Positions 29,332-40,251 of a stretch of 64,000 bases of DNA are shown piece by piece. This DNA comes from Gemmatimonas sp. (GTDB lineage Bacteria; Gemmatimonadota; Gemmatimonadetes; Gemmatimonadales; Gemmatimonadaceae). Each line of letters opens with the position of its first letter. Positions within the stretch are counted from its first letter, which is position 1. Below the pieces are notes generated by a model. It had not been told where the DNA came from, did not search any database, and worked only from the letters and a program-made list of their open reading frames with translations. The DNA is taken from assembly GCA_965279375.1 (NCBI GenBank), contig OZ257156.1, forward strand, positions 2,752,001 to 2,816,000, written 5' to 3'. The position numbers were made by a program, and so were the translations under genes.

Positions 29332-29379
29332 TTCGCGGTGGTCGCGCGTCCACCGGGCGCTGCGATGAAGCGTTACGCC

Positions 29380-29412
29380 AGCGCGGTGACCTCACGGTCA
29401 CCGCGCTTTTTT
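29380..29412 (+). terminator. Rho-independent terminator
   Basis: GCGCGGTGACC-TCAC-GGTCACCGCGC followed by TTTTTT. Confidence 0.85.
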
Positions 29413-29556
29413 CTTCAGCCAACGAACAATTGCAGTCGTCTTGGGACGGATGGGGTTCGCGTCAACTCGTGTGTAGTTGAAGCAGGTGCAAAACCAACCT
29501 GTCTGGGTCCGACTACTCGCGACGCCGACGCCCGACCCGCAAAAGGAATGGCCGAC

Positions 29557-31338
29557 ATGAGTACGAACTCACGAATAGAGCATGCCGGTCGCGCACGGAT
29601 GTGCGCGCGCACTGCGGCGGTCCTCGCGCTCGTCGTCCTCGCGCTCTCGGCGTGTTCGTCCACCGACTCCTCGAGCACCTCGGACTTGGTGGTCGACCCG
29701 AACCCGCCGGTCTCCGAGCCGGTGTCGGTTGTCGTGCCCAACGGCGGACAGCAAGCCACTGTGGGTGTTCCGTTCAGCTACGATGCCACGCAGAATGGCG
29801 CGGCGTTCAAGGACCCGCGCGGCGGTGGTCTCGTGTACGCAGTCAGCTTCGCGCCCACAGCCAACGGGCTCAATGCCACTGCCGGGCGAATCAGCGGTGT
29901 GCCGAATGCTGCGGGCGTCGTCACCGCCACGATCGCAGCCACCGACATTCTCGGACGCACGGCGACCAACAGCTTTGCCATCACAGTAGCCGCTGCGCCC
30001 GTTGCGGCGCCGGTGGCGCTGGTCTCCGCGAATGCGCCGCAGGGCGCCACGGTGGGCGCGTCGTTCAGCTACGACGCCACCAAAGCAGGTGCAGCGTTCA
30101 ACGGCACGGGGCTCAGCTACGCGGTCGCATTCACGCCGAGTGCCAACGGGCTGTCGGCAGCGAATGGACGCATTGTCGGCGCACCAACGGCCGCCGGCAC
30201 GATCACGGTGACAATCGTTGCGACTGATGCGGCGGGCAACGTCGCGACGAACGCATTTCCCATCGTGGCGTTCAGCAACGATCTCGTGGCACCGGTGCTA
30301 CCCGCCGCGCTCTTGGCCTACTCCGACGCACGCGCGCCGTTGCCGCGGCACTACACACAGGCCGCACCCAACGCCGGAAGTCCGGCGGGCGCCGACAATA
30401 CGCCGGCGAACAACATCACTTCCGATGCGGGTGCGACGCTCGGGCGCGTGCTGTTCTACGATCGTCGCTTGTCGGTGAACGATCGTGTTTCGTGCGCGTC
30501 GTGCCATCAGCAGCAGTTTGCATTCTCCGACACCGCGCGACTGAGCCGCGGTTTTGCCGGCGCGTCCACGGGGCGGCACAGCATGGGGCTCGCGAACGCG
30601 CGCTTCTACAATCGCGGACGCTTCTTCTGGGATGAGCGCGCGGCCAGCCTCGAGGCGCAGGTGCTGCTGCCAATTCAGGACGCCGCCGAGATGGGTATGA
30701 CGCTCGACCTCGCGCGCACCAAGCTCTCGCTCACGTCATACTACGGCCCGCTCTTCACGGCGGCCTTCGGCACACCCGAGGTCACCGCTGACCGCGTGTC
30801 ACTCGCACTGGCGCAGTTCGTCCGATCGATGGTGTCCACCACCTCAAAATTCGATCAGGCCTTCGGCCCCAACGGCGTTCCCGACTTCGCGGGCACCTTC
30901 ACGGCGCAGGAGCTGGCGGGGCAGACGCTCTACAACGGTCGTGCCGGTTGCGCACGCTGCCACGGCACCAACGCGCACATCAGCGACGACATTCACAACA
31001 CCGGGCTCGACGCCACCATCACCGATGTCGGCGCAGGCGGCGGTCGCTTCAAGGCGCCGTCGCTGCGCAACGTGGCGGTGCGTGCGCCGTACATGCACGA
31101 CGGCCGCTTCAGCACACTGGCGCAGGTGATCGAGTTCTACAACTCCGGCGTGCAGCCCAACCCCAATCTTGACGGTCGTCTGCAGGCGGGCGGTGGTGGT
31201 CGCGGCGGCGGAGCGCCGGCGCCGCTGCGTCTCAACCTGACGCAGGCAGAGAAGGACGCGCTCGTGGCGTTCCTGGGCACCTTCACCGATCAGCAGTTTC
31301 TCACCGATCCTCGATTGGCGAACCCGTTTCTTCGCTGA
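29557..31338 (+). CDS. Di-heme cytochrome c peroxidase/MauG-family lipoprotein with two Ig-like (He_PIG) repeats
   Basis: Lipobox LSAC; two repeats of ATVG.FSYDAT...GRI.G.P; LGRVLFYDRRLS, CASCH, FFWDERA, CARCH, FKAPSLRNV, PYMHDG. Confidence 0.87.
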   Translation: MSTNSRIEHAGRARMCARTAAVLALVVLALSACSSTDSSSTSDLVVDPNPPVSEPVSVVVPNGGQQATVGVPFSYDATQNGAAFKDPRGGGLVYAVSFAPTANGLNATAGRISGVPNAAGVVTATIAATDILGRTATNSFAITVAAAPVAAPVALVSANAPQGATVGASFSYDATKAGAAFNGTGLSYAVAFTPSANGLSAANGRIVGAPTAAGTITVTIVATDAAGNVATNAFPIVAFSNDLVAPVLPAALLAYSDARAPLPRHYTQAAPNAGSPAGADNTPANNITSDAGATLGRVLFYDRRLSVNDRVSCASCHQQQFAFSDTARLSRGFAGASTGRHSMGLANARFYNRGRFFWDERAASLEAQVLLPIQDAAEMGMTLDLARTKLSLTSYYGPLFTAAFGTPEVTADRVSLALAQFVRSMVSTTSKFDQAFGPNGVPDFAGTFTAQELAGQTLYNGRAGCARCHGTNAHISDDIHNTGLDATITDVGAGGGRFKAPSLRNVAVRAPYMHDGRFSTLAQVIEFYNSGVQPNPNLDGRLQAGGGGRGGGAPAPLRLNLTQAEKDALVAFLGTFTDQQFLTDPRLANPFLR

Positions 31339-34735: not shown

Positions 34736-34820
34736 CACCGTTCGCGCCGCGCTGGCGTGGACCTGCGCTGTAACGCTTGCGGTGGATGCAACCTGTTGTG
34801 ATCTTGCGGCACGGCATCAC

Positions 34821-34932
34821 GGGATGCCTCCGGTCCGCGGAAAGGGCAGCGCCCACCCCTGCAGTTGCACGATTGCCCACGCCCTCTTCGGGCCGATGGT
34901 GCGGACGCCGGCCACAACGAAGGAGGCGTCCC
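34821..34932 (+). promoter_or_regulatory. Candidate structured 5' leader RNA sequestering the SD of the ankyrin gene
   Basis: GGGAUGCCUCC (34821-31) pairs with GGAGGCGUCCC (34922-32); nested stems GUCCGCG/UGCGGAC, GGGCAG/UUGCCC and GCCC/GGGC. Confidence 0.65.
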
Positions 34933-36468
34933 ATGGCATCACCGTTCAAGCGTGCGCTCCCCGCGCGCGTCAATCTCGAGCAGCAGAAGTCGCAGGCGAA
35001 AGAGCTTCTCCGTGCCTTCGCCGCTGCCGACCCCGAAGCCGTCGCGCGTGTACGCGCCGCGCTCCCCGACAAGTCGCGTATCGTGCTGGCGGATGCGCAA
35101 TTCACACTGGCCCGCGAGTACGGCTTCGAAAGCTGGAATGCGCTCAAGCAGCACATCGACGATCGCATGGCGGCCGCGCGTGCACCACACGAGCAGTTGC
35201 ATCACGCGATGCAGCGCCGCGACGCAGTGATGGCACGGCAGCTTCTCGCGCAGCACGCGGAGTTCCGACCGCTCATCAACGCGCCGATGTTTGCCTACAA
35301 CGCACCAGCGCTCGTTTCCTTCGCCGATGATGCCGCGATGGTGGACGTCCTGCTCGAGTTCGGGGCCGACCCCAACAAGAAGAGCGACTGGTGGGCTGGT
35401 GGTTTTCATCCGTTGCACGTGGCTACCGGAGCAGCGGCCGAGCGATTGCTCGCGGCTGGCGCGGTTCCTGACGCATGCGCCGCCGCGCATCTCGACCGAC
35501 CCGACCTGCTGCTGCGACTCATCGAGTCGAACCCACGCTGTGTCGCCGAACGCGGCGGCGACGGACAGACACCGCTGCACCTCGCGCGCTCTCAGCGCGT
35601 CGTTGACATCCTGCTCGATGCGGGCGCTGACATCGACGCGCGCGATGTCGATCATCGCGCGACACCCGCCGAGTGGATGCTCGATCGCAGTCGTGGCGGA
35701 GGGCGCTATGAGTTGGCGCGCTATCTGGTCGAGCGGGGCGCCAGCGCAGACATCTTTCTTGCGGCGGCACTTGGTCGCACCGTTGACGTACGCGCGATGC
35801 TCGAGCGCGATCCTGCGTTGCTCGAACTGCAAACCGGTCGCGGACGCTACGCCGAAGCGAAGCCAAGCAGCTTTCACATCTACTTCTGGACGATCGGCAG
35901 CTATCGTGGCCCGCTCGAAGTTGCCGCGCAGTTCGGTCACGAGGATACGCTCGCGGTCATGCTGCCGATGGCGACGCCGGTGCAACGATTGCGCCTCGCC
36001 TGCAGACGCGCCGATAGCGACGCGGCGCAAGCGTTGTTGCGCGACTATCCCGCGCTCGTGCAATCGCTGGCGACAGTCGATCAGCGCGCCATCACCGACG
36101 CGGCCTGGAATGGCGACGCACCCGCAGTCGCCTTGATGATGTCGCTGGGCTTCGATCCAGCCACCACCGGCCAGGACGCGGGCACTGCGCTGCACTGCGC
36201 CGCATGGCAGGGCAGTGCGGCCTGTGTGGCGGCGATTCTCAGCCACGAATCCGGGCGCGCCATCGTCAACGCGACCGAGGTGCATCACGGCAGCACTCCA
36301 CTAGGCTGGTGCTGCCATGGCTCGCTCAATGGACCGCGCGCCGGCGACTTCGAACAGGTGGCGCGCTTGCTGCTCGAAGCAGGCGCCACGCCCTACGCGT
36401 TCGACGCATCGGAGGCAGTCGAAGCGGTGCTCGCCGACTGGATGCAGGGAGACTCGCCCGTCGCGTAG
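34933..36468 (+). CDS. Ankyrin-repeat protein with N-terminal helical domain
   Basis: GQTPLHLA, GTALHCAAWQG, GSTPLGWC, LLEFGADPN; N-terminal LPARVNLEQQKSQAKELL...AQFTLAREYGFESW; AGGAGG SD. Confidence 0.88.
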   Translation: MASPFKRALPARVNLEQQKSQAKELLRAFAAADPEAVARVRAALPDKSRIVLADAQFTLAREYGFESWNALKQHIDDRMAAARAPHEQLHHAMQRRDAVMARQLLAQHAEFRPLINAPMFAYNAPALVSFADDAAMVDVLLEFGADPNKKSDWWAGGFHPLHVATGAAAERLLAAGAVPDACAAAHLDRPDLLLRLIESNPRCVAERGGDGQTPLHLARSQRVVDILLDAGADIDARDVDHRATPAEWMLDRSRGGGRYELARYLVERGASADIFLAAALGRTVDVRAMLERDPALLELQTGRGRYAEAKPSSFHIYFWTIGSYRGPLEVAAQFGHEDTLAVMLPMATPVQRLRLACRRADSDAAQALLRDYPALVQSLATVDQRAITDAAWNGDAPAVALMMSLGFDPATTGQDAGTALHCAAWQGSAACVAAILSHESGRAIVNATEVHHGSTPLGWCCHGSLNGPRAGDFEQVARLLLEAGATPYAFDASEAVEAVLADWMQGDSPVA

Positions 36469-37551: not shown

Positions 37552-37671
37552 GGGGAGAGGTCCTATCTGATGCCGGTGGGATGAGTCACGGGGAGGTAGA
37601 GGAAGATAGCGTTCCGATCGCCAATAGCGCGCGTGACCGCACCTGAGACGGCGTCGGTTCTCCACCGGCGT

Positions 37672-37697
37672 GAACCTTTTGCGGTTAGCTGCGACTC
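37672..37697 (+). promoter_or_regulatory. Putative ECF-sigma promoter (possibly autoregulatory)
   Basis: GAACC-N16-GACTC upstream of the ECF sigma gene. Confidence 0.5.
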
Positions 37698-37732
37698 CAT
37701 ATTCGGGAGCAACATCGTCCAGCGAGGATTCA

Positions 37733-38332
37733 GTGTACCAAGGGAGTGACGACGAACAGCGGCACGACGGCTTGAGCGAGCATGCGCGTCTAGCAGACGA
37801 GCTGCTGGCCGTTCGCTGCCTGCTCGGCGAGCGTCAGGCCATCGATACGCTGGTCGCGCGATGGCATGAACCGCTGTGGTCGTATCTGCGGAGCATCCTC
37901 GGCGACGACGACTTGGCTGCGGACGCCATGCAGGCCGGCTGGCTGCGAATCCTGCGGGCACTTCCTTCGCTGCGAGACCCTGCGCGTCTGCGGCCGTGGT
38001 TGTTCGGCATCATCCGCCGAACGGCGATGGACCGGCTTCGCGCCCGGTACGCCGAGCTCCCGCACGTTGTCGACGCGGCGGACGTCGCTGACACCATCTC
38101 GAATGACACGCAGGATGACGAGTCGCGGGATGATGACTTGGCCGCCATGCACCACGAACTCGCGCAGCTCCCCGCGCTCGAACGCGAAGTGCTCGTGCTG
38201 TTCTACCTGAAGGAACTGTCGCTGGCGCAAATCGCCGACGTGCTCGCCGTGCCGGTGGGAACGGTCAAGTCACGACTGTGGCGCGCGCGGACCTTGTTAC
38301 GGCAGCGACTCGAACACTCACGCGCCTCCTGA
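37733..38332 (+). CDS. RNA polymerase ECF-type sigma-70 factor
   Basis: Region 2 (ADAMQAGW...WLFGIIRR) and region 4 (LSLAQIADVLAVPVGTVKSRL). Start GTG 37733 or 37670. Confidence 0.9.
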   Translation: MYQGSDDEQRHDGLSEHARLADELLAVRCLLGERQAIDTLVARWHEPLWSYLRSILGDDDLAADAMQAGWLRILRALPSLRDPARLRPWLFGIIRRTAMDRLRARYAELPHVVDAADVADTISNDTQDDESRDDDLAAMHHELAQLPALEREVLVLFYLKELSLAQIADVLAVPVGTVKSRLWRARTLLRQRLEHSRAS

Positions 38333-38347
38333 GCGCGCGCCACGCAT

Positions 38348-38896
38348 ATGACCAACACCGAGGATACGAGGTATCCCATGTCCGACCGAACACCGGCGTC
38401 AACGCCAGCTCCATCGATTGCCGCGTTGCAGGTGACGCTCGCCAACGAAGTCACGCTGCCATCGCGTGTAGCGCATGTCGCGCTGCTGCTCGTCTCTGTG
38501 TGCATGGCCACGGTGATGGGCGCGTTGCTGGTGACGGAGGTGGGGCTCCCAGCGCGCACGCAGATCGCACTCGTGGTGATGTTCTTCATCGCGTGCTGCT
38601 GGACGGGGTACGCGTGGTGGGTGCTCGCGCGGCGTCGCGTGCTCTACGCACGCCATCGCGTCGTCGCGGGCGGAATGGCACTCGCGTTCAGTCTCGTCTT
38701 CACCGGCGGATGCGCGCTGCTCGGCATCTCGGGGCAGGGTGGAAAGTGGTGGCCTGCGGCGATCGCGACGGGAAGCACGCTGTTCGTTGTCGCAAGCTTC
38801 GGCTTCGTGAAGGCGCAGCGTTCCGTGCGCGCACTCGACCGTCGTCGTCTTGAGCTGGAACGTGCGCTCGGCTCGACCGCTGAGGTCGCACGATGA
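38348..38896 (+). CDS. Four-TM membrane protein, candidate anti-sigma factor
   Basis: Four hydrophobic segments; directly downstream of the ECF sigma. Confidence 0.65.
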   Translation: MTNTEDTRYPMSDRTPASTPAPSIAALQVTLANEVTLPSRVAHVALLLVSVCMATVMGALLVTEVGLPARTQIALVVMFFIACCWTGYAWWVLARRRVLYARHRVVAGGMALAFSLVFTGGCALLGISGQGGKWWPAAIATGSTLFVVASFGFVKAQRSVRALDRRRLELERALGSTAEVAR

Positions 38897-40251
38897 GGTC
38901 CGCGACGCGATCGACTCGACCCGGCATTCTGCTGGTCGCGCTCTCGCTCGTATACACCGCGACTGCGCGCGCGCAATCAGCAGTCATCACGCCGGGACGC
39001 TTCGCGCTGGGTGCGGATACCGTCCCGGTAGACGAGGGGCGATTCACGGTGCCGGCCAATCGTTCTGCGCGGGGCGGCGCGACGCTCACGCTGCGTTTCG
39101 TACGCTTTCCGACGACGTCCCGCACACCGCGCGCGCCGATCGTCTTCCTGGCCGGCGGTCCCGGTGACGCGGCCACGCGTGCCTTTCGCGGCATGCCGAT
39201 AGCGTTCCTGAACGAGCTCCGCGCCATCGCCGACGTCATCGCGTTCGATCAGCGGGGCACCGGCGGCTCCGAGCCCATCGATCCCCTCTGTCCTCCCGGA
39301 ACCGCGTATCCGCTTGGCGAAGTCGGCGATCCGTCACGCATGCTCGAACAGCTCCGCGCGCGCGTCAGCGCATGTATCGCTGCAGCCTCGTCACATGGGG
39401 GCGATGTGGCTGGCCTCACCACCGCCGAAAGCGCCGACGACCTCGAAGCGTTGCGCGTGTTCATCGGCGCGACGCAGCTCAACCTGCTTGCGGGAAGCTA
39501 CGGCACGCATCTCGCCCTGAGTACAGTGCGTCGTCATCCGCAATTGGTGCAACGCATGGTGCTGGCCGGCGTGGAGGGCCCGGACGACACGTTCAAGGAT
39601 CCTGCTCGTGTCGATGCCGTGCTTGCGCGGATCGCGGTGGCGCGGCGACCAACGCTGATGGACGATCTGCGCACGTTGACGACGCGGCTTTCGTCCAACG
39701 AAGTGAAAGTGAGCGCGCCCAACGGCGTGGTGATCGCTCTCGGCACATGGGATCTGCAGCGTTGGGTGGCGGAGTCGGTGGATCTCGTGCCCAAGATCGA
39801 CGCGATGGTCGCGGCCATTCCGGCCATGCTCGACAATGACTACCGCGTTCTGGCGCGGTGGGTAGCAGGCTATCGCAGTCCGCGAACGCTCAACCTGATG
39901 AACCTCGCGATGGACTGCGCCTCGTACGCCTCGCCTGAGCGACTGGCGCAGATCACCGCCGCCGCACCGACTGCGACCACAGGGAACGCGATCAACTTTC
40001 CGTTGCCGCAAATTTGCGACGTACCCGGCCTACCACGCCTGCCGGAGACGTTTCGCGACCCGCTCACCTCGAACGTTCACGCGCTGCTGATCTCCGGCAC
40101 GTTCGACGGACGTACGCCTGTGAGCAACGCAGAAGCCATCGCTCGCGGCATGCCGAATGCCCGCACGCTGGTGATCGAAGGCGCGTCGCACGGACTCTTT
40201 CGCGAACGGGAGGCCCTGAGCGCGATGGTGAGCTTCCTGCAGGGCAAATAG
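38893..40251 (+). CDS. Secreted alpha/beta hydrolase (TAP-like peptidase family)
   Basis: FLAGGPG, FDQRGTG, GSYGT nucleophile elbow, GTFDGRTP, GASH; ATGA overlap with the upstream gene. Confidence 0.88.
   Translation: MRSATRSTRPGILLVALSLVYTATARAQSAVITPGRFALGADTVPVDEGRFTVPANRSARGGATLTLRFVRFPTTSRTPRAPIVFLAGGPGDAATRAFRGMPIAFLNELRAIADVIAFDQRGTGGSEPIDPLCPPGTAYPLGEVGDPSRMLEQLRARVSACIAAASSHGGDVAGLTTAESADDLEALRVFIGATQLNLLAGSYGTHLALSTVRRHPQLVQRMVLAGVEGPDDTFKDPARVDAVLARIAVARRPTLMDDLRTLTTRLSSNEVKVSAPNGVVIALGTWDLQRWVAESVDLVPKIDAMVAAIPAMLDNDYRVLARWVAGYRSPRTLNLMNLAMDCASYASPERLAQITAAAPTATTGNAINFPLPQICDVPGLPRLPETFRDPLTSNVHALLISGTFDGRTPVSNAEAIARGMPNARTLVIEGASHGLFREREALSAMVSFLQGK

Follow-up and report, generated by a model that had tools for sequence, protein, structure and literature searches.

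A widespread folded leader RNA coupled to a small N-terminal domain ahead of an ankyrin protein gene of Gemmatimonas sp.

The 64,000-nucleotide stretch of Gemmatimonas sp. DNA analysed in this study (hereafter, the window) contains an ankyrin protein gene whose leader can hide its own Shine–Dalgarno (SD) sequence. A preliminary description, made from the letters of this stretch, proposed that the leader RNA and the N-terminal domain of the protein form a translational control cassette that acts by autoregulatory RNA binding or ligand sensing and sits inside a sugar-oxidation locus. The locus raises the question of whether the leader is a conserved folded RNA and, if so, what ties it to the protein that it precedes. 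The open reading frame, its ankyrin repeats, which begin at about residue 136, and its N-terminal module were all confirmed, and the next long ORF downstream of 34933–36468 lies on the opposite strand. The main elements are as follows.

34777–34805, forward strand: probable sigma-70-type promoter (-35 TTGCGG, 17 nt, -10 GATCTT), assigned from sequence and conserved position
34812–34935, forward strand: complete type I leader RNA, as far as the start codon; 96.5 bits with covariance model R1, whose training set includes this copy
34933–36468, forward strand: ankyrin protein gene, 511 aa, N-terminal domain followed by ankyrin repeats
34957–35163, forward strand: N-terminal four-helix domain (predicted), residues 9–77, candidate RNA-binding module; K19, K23, R39, Q56, R61 and W68 conserved

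Folded alone, the region was no better than shuffled sequences (z -1.14; 28 of 200 shuffles as good). Because this stability is ordinary, the outer helix of the preliminary description depends on the window folded and Rfam offers no match, the case for the RNA rests on homologues. We collected 192 domain records, of which 171 passed a pairing-based parser; seven were dropped for length or a missing start, and removal of near-duplicates left 82 leaders, which were aligned on sequence alone (mean identity 52%). Because the parser required the kissing helix and gave credit for P1, P3 and pseudoknot 1, the paired percentages of these four elements are inflated (marked † below); the compensatory changes were not dictated by it. 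The elements of the resulting fold are listed below.

34813–34828, forward strand: P1 hairpin, 34814–17 with 34824–27, here extending to 34813–34828; 90% paired†, double changes in 3/4 pairs
34820–34859, forward strand: pseudoknot 1, P1 loop 34820–23 with 34856–59, one C-C mismatch in this copy; 95% paired†, double changes in 4/4 pairs
34830–34840, forward strand: P2, a 2-bp helix closing the loop that carries the kissing strand, 34830–31 with 34839–40; 97.5% paired, double changes in both pairs
34833–34906, forward strand: pseudoknot 2, a loop-loop kiss, 34833–38 with 34901–06; 99% paired†, double changes in 5/6 pairs
34841–34855, forward strand: A-rich junction, P3 hairpin (34844–47 with 34851–54) and A34855
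34881–34927, forward strand: P4, anti-SD 34881–90 with 34918–27, the latter containing the SD GGAGG (34922–26); its inner stem closes the kissing loop
34891–95 with 34909–13, forward strand: P4 inner stem, seen by covariation

Judged from covariation, the RNA folds into a double pseudoknot that includes a kissing loop, and the SD is paired within its 3' hairpin. P1 comes first, and its loop reaches forward to form pseudoknot 1; between the two strands of this pseudoknot lie the P2 hairpin, whose loop forms the kiss with that of the 3' hairpin, the A-rich junction and P3. A variable linker follows P3 and leads into the long P4 hairpin, which pairs the SD at its base. The top pairs by structure-blind mutual information were 34821–34858, 34820–34859, 34847–34851, 34846–34852 and 34845–34853, followed by 34823–34856, 34834–34905, 34816–34825 and 34894–34910. 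Pseudoknot 1 gave the two best structure-blind scores, and P2 surfaced by mutual information though the parser had no knowledge of it. The whole conserved fold was 88% paired and showed 286 double changes, compared with 92 for shuffled alignments; sliding the structure along the alignment gave 41–48% pairing. The anti-SD helix is poorly aligned by column (62–77%) and was therefore tested per sequence: cognate strands formed duplexes of -13.6 kcal/mol versus -10.0 kcal/mol for non-cognate ones, and none of 5000 permutations was as good. The SD 5-mer is predicted to be paired in 72 of the 82 leaders, and opening it would cost a median of 10.8 kcal/mol. Conserved unpaired bases number only three, all of them A, and A34843 is invariant across the aligned leaders. 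Searches for a switch helix formed by the junction purines or by P1 with the anti-SD found no cognate preference (2069 and 4529 of 5000 permutations as good in the two tests). At the gathering cut-off, Rfam 15 gave no match in the window, in 20 related loci or in six loci of type III (described below), and a permissive search of the leader had a best match of E 1.6, in line with the absence from Rfam 15 for which a check had been proposed. The leader is a real, widespread, uncatalogued folded RNA family and part of an RNA-domain cassette.

This fold differs from the nested one drawn in the preliminary description, which had an 11-bp outer helix, two inner helices and a small hairpin. The segments named there are correctly placed and complementary as written, and the covariation among 82 diverse copies bears out the expectation of a conserved leader. 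As a whole, however, the earlier structure is 64% paired across the 82 homologues, and only one of its four helices, GUCCGCG/UGCGGAC (34833–39/34900–06; 94% paired), is conserved. The outer helix (51–70%), GGGCAG/UUGCCC (43–53%) and the GCCC-UCUUC-GGGC hairpin (42%) are not. The SD is hidden, as had been proposed, but by the helix between 34881–34890 and 34918–34927. The outer helix occupies the following region.

34821–34932, forward strand: outer helix of the preliminary description (34821–31 with 34922–32), a competing fold, clade-restricted, in which the SD is hidden as well; present in the nested MFE of this copy

Its pair probability is about 0.92 in the nested MFE of 34811–34935 and 0.06 when the folded segment extends to 34960, and that of GGGCAG/UUGCCC is 0.01–0.05 in all five windows folded. 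Of 136 distinct leaders, 19 have an outer helix of at least 10 bp, and these are almost all closely related; tested per sequence, its 5' arm showed no significant cognate preference (799 of 5000 permutations did as well). The nested structure was accordingly rejected as the family fold, by covariation and by the cognate permutation test. In this copy its computed energy is -44.3 kcal/mol versus -35.2 kcal/mol for the conserved fold, the pseudoknots of which are not counted; by this modelling, the outer helix is a real competitor here, and both folds hide the SD.

The promoter proposed for the leader holds up in its position, which is conserved across homologues, but a scan at the consensus threshold returned no sites. 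A TTG-type -35 element lies 30–44 nt 5' of the first helix in 61 of 81 homologues versus 5 of 72 in a control window, and an xAxxxT hexamer is found in 48 of the 61 leaders having the -35-like element. Transcription would then start near 34811–34813, at P1. Given this spacing of the -35-like element before P1, the RNA (median leader length 123 nt, 82 homologues) is probably the whole 5' UTR. None of the 82 leaders contains an upstream ORF with an SD and an upstream AUG, and a terminator-like U6 run is present in four and absent in 78.

The family is broadly distributed. The first 80 residues as query retrieved 15 loci in genome contigs, 14 of them true, from Gemmatimonadota, Acidobacteria, Verrucomicrobia, Latescibacterota and Rhizobium; a metagenome profile search matched 595 of 599 candidates, of which 80 were kept. 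The domain occurs in at least 9,173 protein clusters at 50% identity and was matched in 41/151, 14/101, 17/301 and 6/151 genomes of four phyla. Azospirillum, Nonomuraea, Variovorax, Ancylobacter, Burkholderia, Methylosinus and Vibrio are also among the named carriers. A leader motif of the same kind precedes most of these domain genes. Model R1, run over 34 sources, 33 of which were not training rows though some were close kin, gave 21 matches at E <0.001, three weak ones and none at 10 loci.

The preliminary description had joined the leader to the N-terminal domain, and whole genomes of the same phylum agree: R1 found 67 places in 40 of 150 genomes, the RNA was followed by the domain in 62 of the 67, and 62 of 68 domain genes were preceded by the RNA, counts in which many loci are training sequences or their kin and one of the six misses was tested only through its locus. 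Of the five other RNA matches, two run off a contig end after the first residues of the domain, which carry its signature, and three are partial RNAs. The RNA is thus confined almost wholly to genes of its putative binder (62/67); any cis element passed on together with a gene's 5' end would, however, show such linkage. In its own genome the present gene has two paralogues, and the RNA stands before two of the three genes. The second full leader copy (774711–774835, reverse strand; L016/L195) precedes a paralogous ankyrin gene, and the third paralogue (4880796–4881014, reverse strand; L017) has a worn domain without K23 and R61 and no leader. Broken cassettes (L011:2940–3110, L225, L226, L227 and L228) consist of half leaders or of the first helix of the domain running into an unrelated gene, which in L011 is a peptidase-like ORF. 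The cassette seems to recombine and decay often.

Viral contigs were also searched. Protein patterns found no relative there; two type I leader patterns gave zero and three matches, one of the three being followed by the domain and one being a partial leader near a contig end, and one of 31 matches to type II patterns was a true cassette. A phage record marked UNVERIFIED (OQ572412.1, L164) carries a leader, the domain and a following part that belongs to the DUF1835 cluster, and may be host DNA; its pseudoknot 1 has a reversed base composition, a clean compensatory case. Several BFVD phage proteins of 47–73 aa are similar to the domain on its own (E 0.02–0.8, TM about 0.6–0.7), among them the 65-aa A0A481W6J4 of Pseudomonas phage Lana, and are possible trans-acting copies.

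The proposed connection with sugar oxidation was not borne out by the neighbourhood. The flanks compared were 1.5–3 kb long, less where a contig ended. Of five neighbours tested, four were found in none of 191 related loci, and three near-identical loci hold a 51-residue GMC fragment. In the nearest relatives (L001, L018 and L019), the GMC oxidoreductase homology ends shortly 5' of the cassette promoter, leaving the 51-residue match. Elsewhere in the window, an ECF sigma factor, a membrane protein without a Pfam match and an alpha/beta hydrolase lie in a row at 37670–40251 and are not linked to the cassette, and a di-haem cytochrome c peroxidase domain follows Ig-like repeats at 29338–31338. 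PADLOC 2.0 anti-phage profiles gave no specific match for the domain, and the whole protein had only generic matches in its ankyrin region.

The domain model consists of four predicted helices (pLDDT 80), and that of type II of three. Residues of helix 1 differ between copies next to the RNA and other copies. K23 is kept in 77 of 82 first copies, which stand next to the RNA, in one of 14 internal copies and in three of seven RNA-less genes; a basic residue at position 19 is found in 78 of 82, 0 of 14 and two of seven, respectively, and W68 is retained in all three groups. Because some internal copies cannot be aligned over helix 1, this contrast at K19 and K23 partly reflects loss of the whole helix. 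The domain is mildly basic: it carries a net positive charge in 64 of 82 proteins, and the region after it in 11 of 79. Comparison with solved structures gave no relative close enough to indicate RNA binding: the best PDB match by sequence had an E of 0.03, the best Foldseek match of the model an E of 4.0, and VIA-align with two domain models reached best Z scores of 4.0 and 5.1. The entry at or tied for the top with both models was PDB 3fyb (DUF1244; Z 4.0 and 5.1, the latter with an rmsd of 3.0 over 54 aligned residues), a resemblance too weak for an assignment. The ESM Atlas returned unnamed clusters only, below 0.9.

Profile comparison placed the domain in a wider group. HHalign matched it to the N-terminus of Pfam Glyoxalase_8 (PF20066; 97.5%, E 6.8e-12) and to that of NCBIfam PRK05973 (94.2%, E 1.1e-7), and by this sequence comparison the domain is a remote relative of both. 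It is not a member of Glyoxalase_8 by Pfam's own cut-off (18.7 bits, below 23.7); Pfam covers the domain only in part and under a misleading name. Glyoxalase_8 (type II) shares the homologous helical domain and a leader of the same topology, while the ankyrin-type domain has one helix more. Leaders of this topology and another sequence stand at 34 of 37 Glyoxalase_8 loci; in blind covariation the highest ranks again go to pseudoknot 1, the kiss and P1, and pairing over the fold reaches 88.5% with a covariation of 0.49 versus 0.19, the structure being derived from the same alignment. The type I topology also accommodates all six PRK05973 loci (type III), although their kissing sequence is entirely different (93.5% paired, five pairs with double changes), a weaker result because these loci are close kin, the kiss is invariant among them and the structure was drawn by eye. 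The kissing sequence changes wholesale between the three subfamilies. Model R1 detected none of the Glyoxalase_8 leaders (best E 1.8), and the sister RNAs escape it.

The part of the protein that follows the domain is highly variable. The 82 genes fall into 27 C-terminal clusters, which indicates that the RNA follows the domain and not the C-terminal part. Type I partners are mostly ankyrin repeats and also include LRR, Clp_N, DUF1835, AhpC/TSA and VOC; 69 scanned among the 150 top representatives added the ClpX zinc finger and FliM, the latter with the domain fused ahead of it (P0021, P0029). Partners of the Glyoxalase_8 type include VOC, the ClpX zinc finger and the Lon N-domain, and in one locus (L248) a Glyoxalase_8-like domain stands ahead of HEPN_RES_NTD1 with a divergent leader.

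As to the choice between autoregulation and ligand sensing, the indirect evidence favours binding by the domain, and the domain probably binds the leader RNA. With limited conviction, we lean towards autogenous translational repression that is released when the variable C-terminal part binds a ligand. The promoter, leader RNA and N-terminal domain would then make up a portable, self-limiting cassette. A transcript starting at P1 would fold into the compact double pseudoknot, the 3' hairpin of which, judged from covariation, pairs the SD. The first helical domain may bind this fold through the basic residues of helix 1 and keep the leader shut, so that the protein would repress its own translation. 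The C-terminal part is exchangeable and in most cases a binding module, in this copy the ankyrin repeats; a ligand, probably a protein or a toxic compound, could occupy it, titrate or release the repressor and thereby raise synthesis of the protein. This sensor-sponge step, suggested by analogy with ClpC2, is the weakest of the series. Some partners, such as AhpC/TSA, a DnaB-like ATPase and DUF1835, are enzymes or unassigned and are not obvious sponges. Further observations speak against the model: opening the leader is predicted to cost about 11 kcal/mol, so that it may need no protein to stay shut; the retention of K23 in three of seven RNA-less genes weakens the argument from K19 and K23; and in this copy the nested energy, with pseudoknots left out of the count, favours the earlier fold.

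The same features can be read in other ways. The RNA may be a protein-independent sensor, namely a riboswitch that responds to a small molecule or an ion, or a switch driven by physical stress, to which the domain is linked by a shared stress or by block inheritance. Its compact multi-pseudoknot fold at the promoter, which pairs the SD as in translational riboswitches, its near-invariant kissing helix and the invariant A would suit such a role. However, riboswitches usually sit before unrelated genes of one pathway, and the genes regulated here have the domain in common, not a pathway. The kissing sequence, moreover, swaps wholesale between subfamilies. The scarcity of conserved unpaired bases and the failure to find a switch helix weaken the case further, so that a protein-bound shape fits better than a two-state aptamer, although a ligand pocket may be made of paired bases and breathing-type switches need no such helix. 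We consider a protein-independent sensor unlikely.

The co-occurrence and residue data that speak for repression serve equally well a domain that binds the RNA mainly to open the leader, in positive feedback, or to form a lasting ribonucleoprotein, such as an mRNA or processed leader tethered to the protein or to another machine. A leader predicted to be shut by some 11 kcal/mol needs an opener and not a lock, which keeps activation or a lasting ribonucleoprotein in play, and the fold is more elaborate than repression requires. On the other hand, known autogenous leaders are mostly repressive, the lack of a terminator-like U run in 78 of 82 leaders gives no sign of a free small RNA, and the conserved SD helix points to translation control; we regard this reading as quite improbable. 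The fold might also be a constitutive brake that keeps a costly or harmful protein scarce and protects the mRNA 5' end, with no regulation at all. The paired SD, the lack of a detectable switch helix and the existence of decayed or truncated copies are consistent with such a brake, for which a single hairpin would suffice; it does not explain why two pseudoknots persist in three subfamilies and several phyla, nor why the RNA is so closely tied to the domain, and we judge it very unlikely.

A broader reading is possible but on balance doubtful. The ancient RNA–protein pair, present in thousands of clusters and three subfamilies, may be a plug-in one-component translational sensor that switches on decoys under attack. 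The fused parts would be decoy copies of targets in essential machines (Clp N-domain, ClpX zinc finger, Lon N-domain, DnaB-like ATPase and FliM) or else ankyrin and LRR binders, and the attack would come from antibiotics, toxins or phage proteins. The small phage proteins consisting of the domain alone might jam the sensor. The list of fused partners would point to natural compounds or proteins by which Clp, Lon and other machines of soil bacteria are attacked. The leader is in any case a new class of structured bacterial RNA, and it gives a widespread domain a testable job. If the domain binds RNA, three sequence-divergent pairs of one topology would provide ready material for work on co-evolution and perhaps on orthogonal translational switches.

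How does this cassette compare with known systems? A full-text literature search, with subscription papers and bioRxiv supplements outside its scope, returned no description of this RNA. The terms ankyrin, glyoxalase and DUF1835 are absent from the main text of PMC11109978, the supplements of which, like those of PMC5737381, may list the motif; term searches of the main text and one supplement of PMC8632094 and of 11 supplements of PMC6429828 likewise gave no hits. The helix order of the leader seems to differ from that of HDV-like and pistol ribozymes, and Rfam had no match. Cobalamin-II, SAM-II and preQ1-II/III are translational riboswitches with a pseudoknot or kissing loop at the SD. The leader shares with them a kissing loop onto an SD-bearing hairpin; unlike them, it has no Rfam match, few conserved unpaired bases and no common downstream pathway.

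TipA/AlbA proteins are drug sponges. In mycobacteria, the detached Clp N-domain protein ClpC2 keeps its own promoter repressed, and binding of cyclomarin ends the repression (PMC10030653). The present family likewise includes detached substrate-binding parts of Clp machines, or drug-binding folds, as possible self-regulated sponges: the detached Clp_N, ClpX zinc finger and Lon N-domain partners recall ClpC2, and VOC and a bleomycin-binding-like fold also occur as partners. Unlike ClpC2, which binds DNA to repress transcription (PMC10030653), the cassette would exert control on the mRNA, and this copy has ankyrin repeats with no known ligand.

The operators of rpsO/S15 and of T4 gene 32 are autogenous operator pseudoknots. 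Like them, the cassette places a structured 5' leader across a ribosome-binding site, with the product of the same gene as the probable binder of that leader, and a conserved structure over the gene's own ribosome-binding site was indeed found; a 'protein binding candidate' class of such autogenous translational operators is defined in PMC11109978. Autogenous operators serve one gene family, whereas this cassette is joined to a wide variety of unrelated C-terminal parts and has a fold absent from Rfam. ANTAR and BglG/LicT (CAT) proteins join a small RNA-binding domain to variable sensor domains and have a cognate leader RNA. The combination of a small candidate RNA-binding domain, variable partners and a cognate leader is shared with them, but the RNA is a double pseudoknot instead of twin hairpins or a terminator overlap, and it stands almost only before the domain's own gene and not before separate target operons; neither ANTAR nor CAT_RBD was among the 23 Pfam families matched by 83 domain sequences at E 0.1. 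The cassette thus belongs to no tested family, and its logic resembles that of autogenous operators and ANTAR-type regulators.
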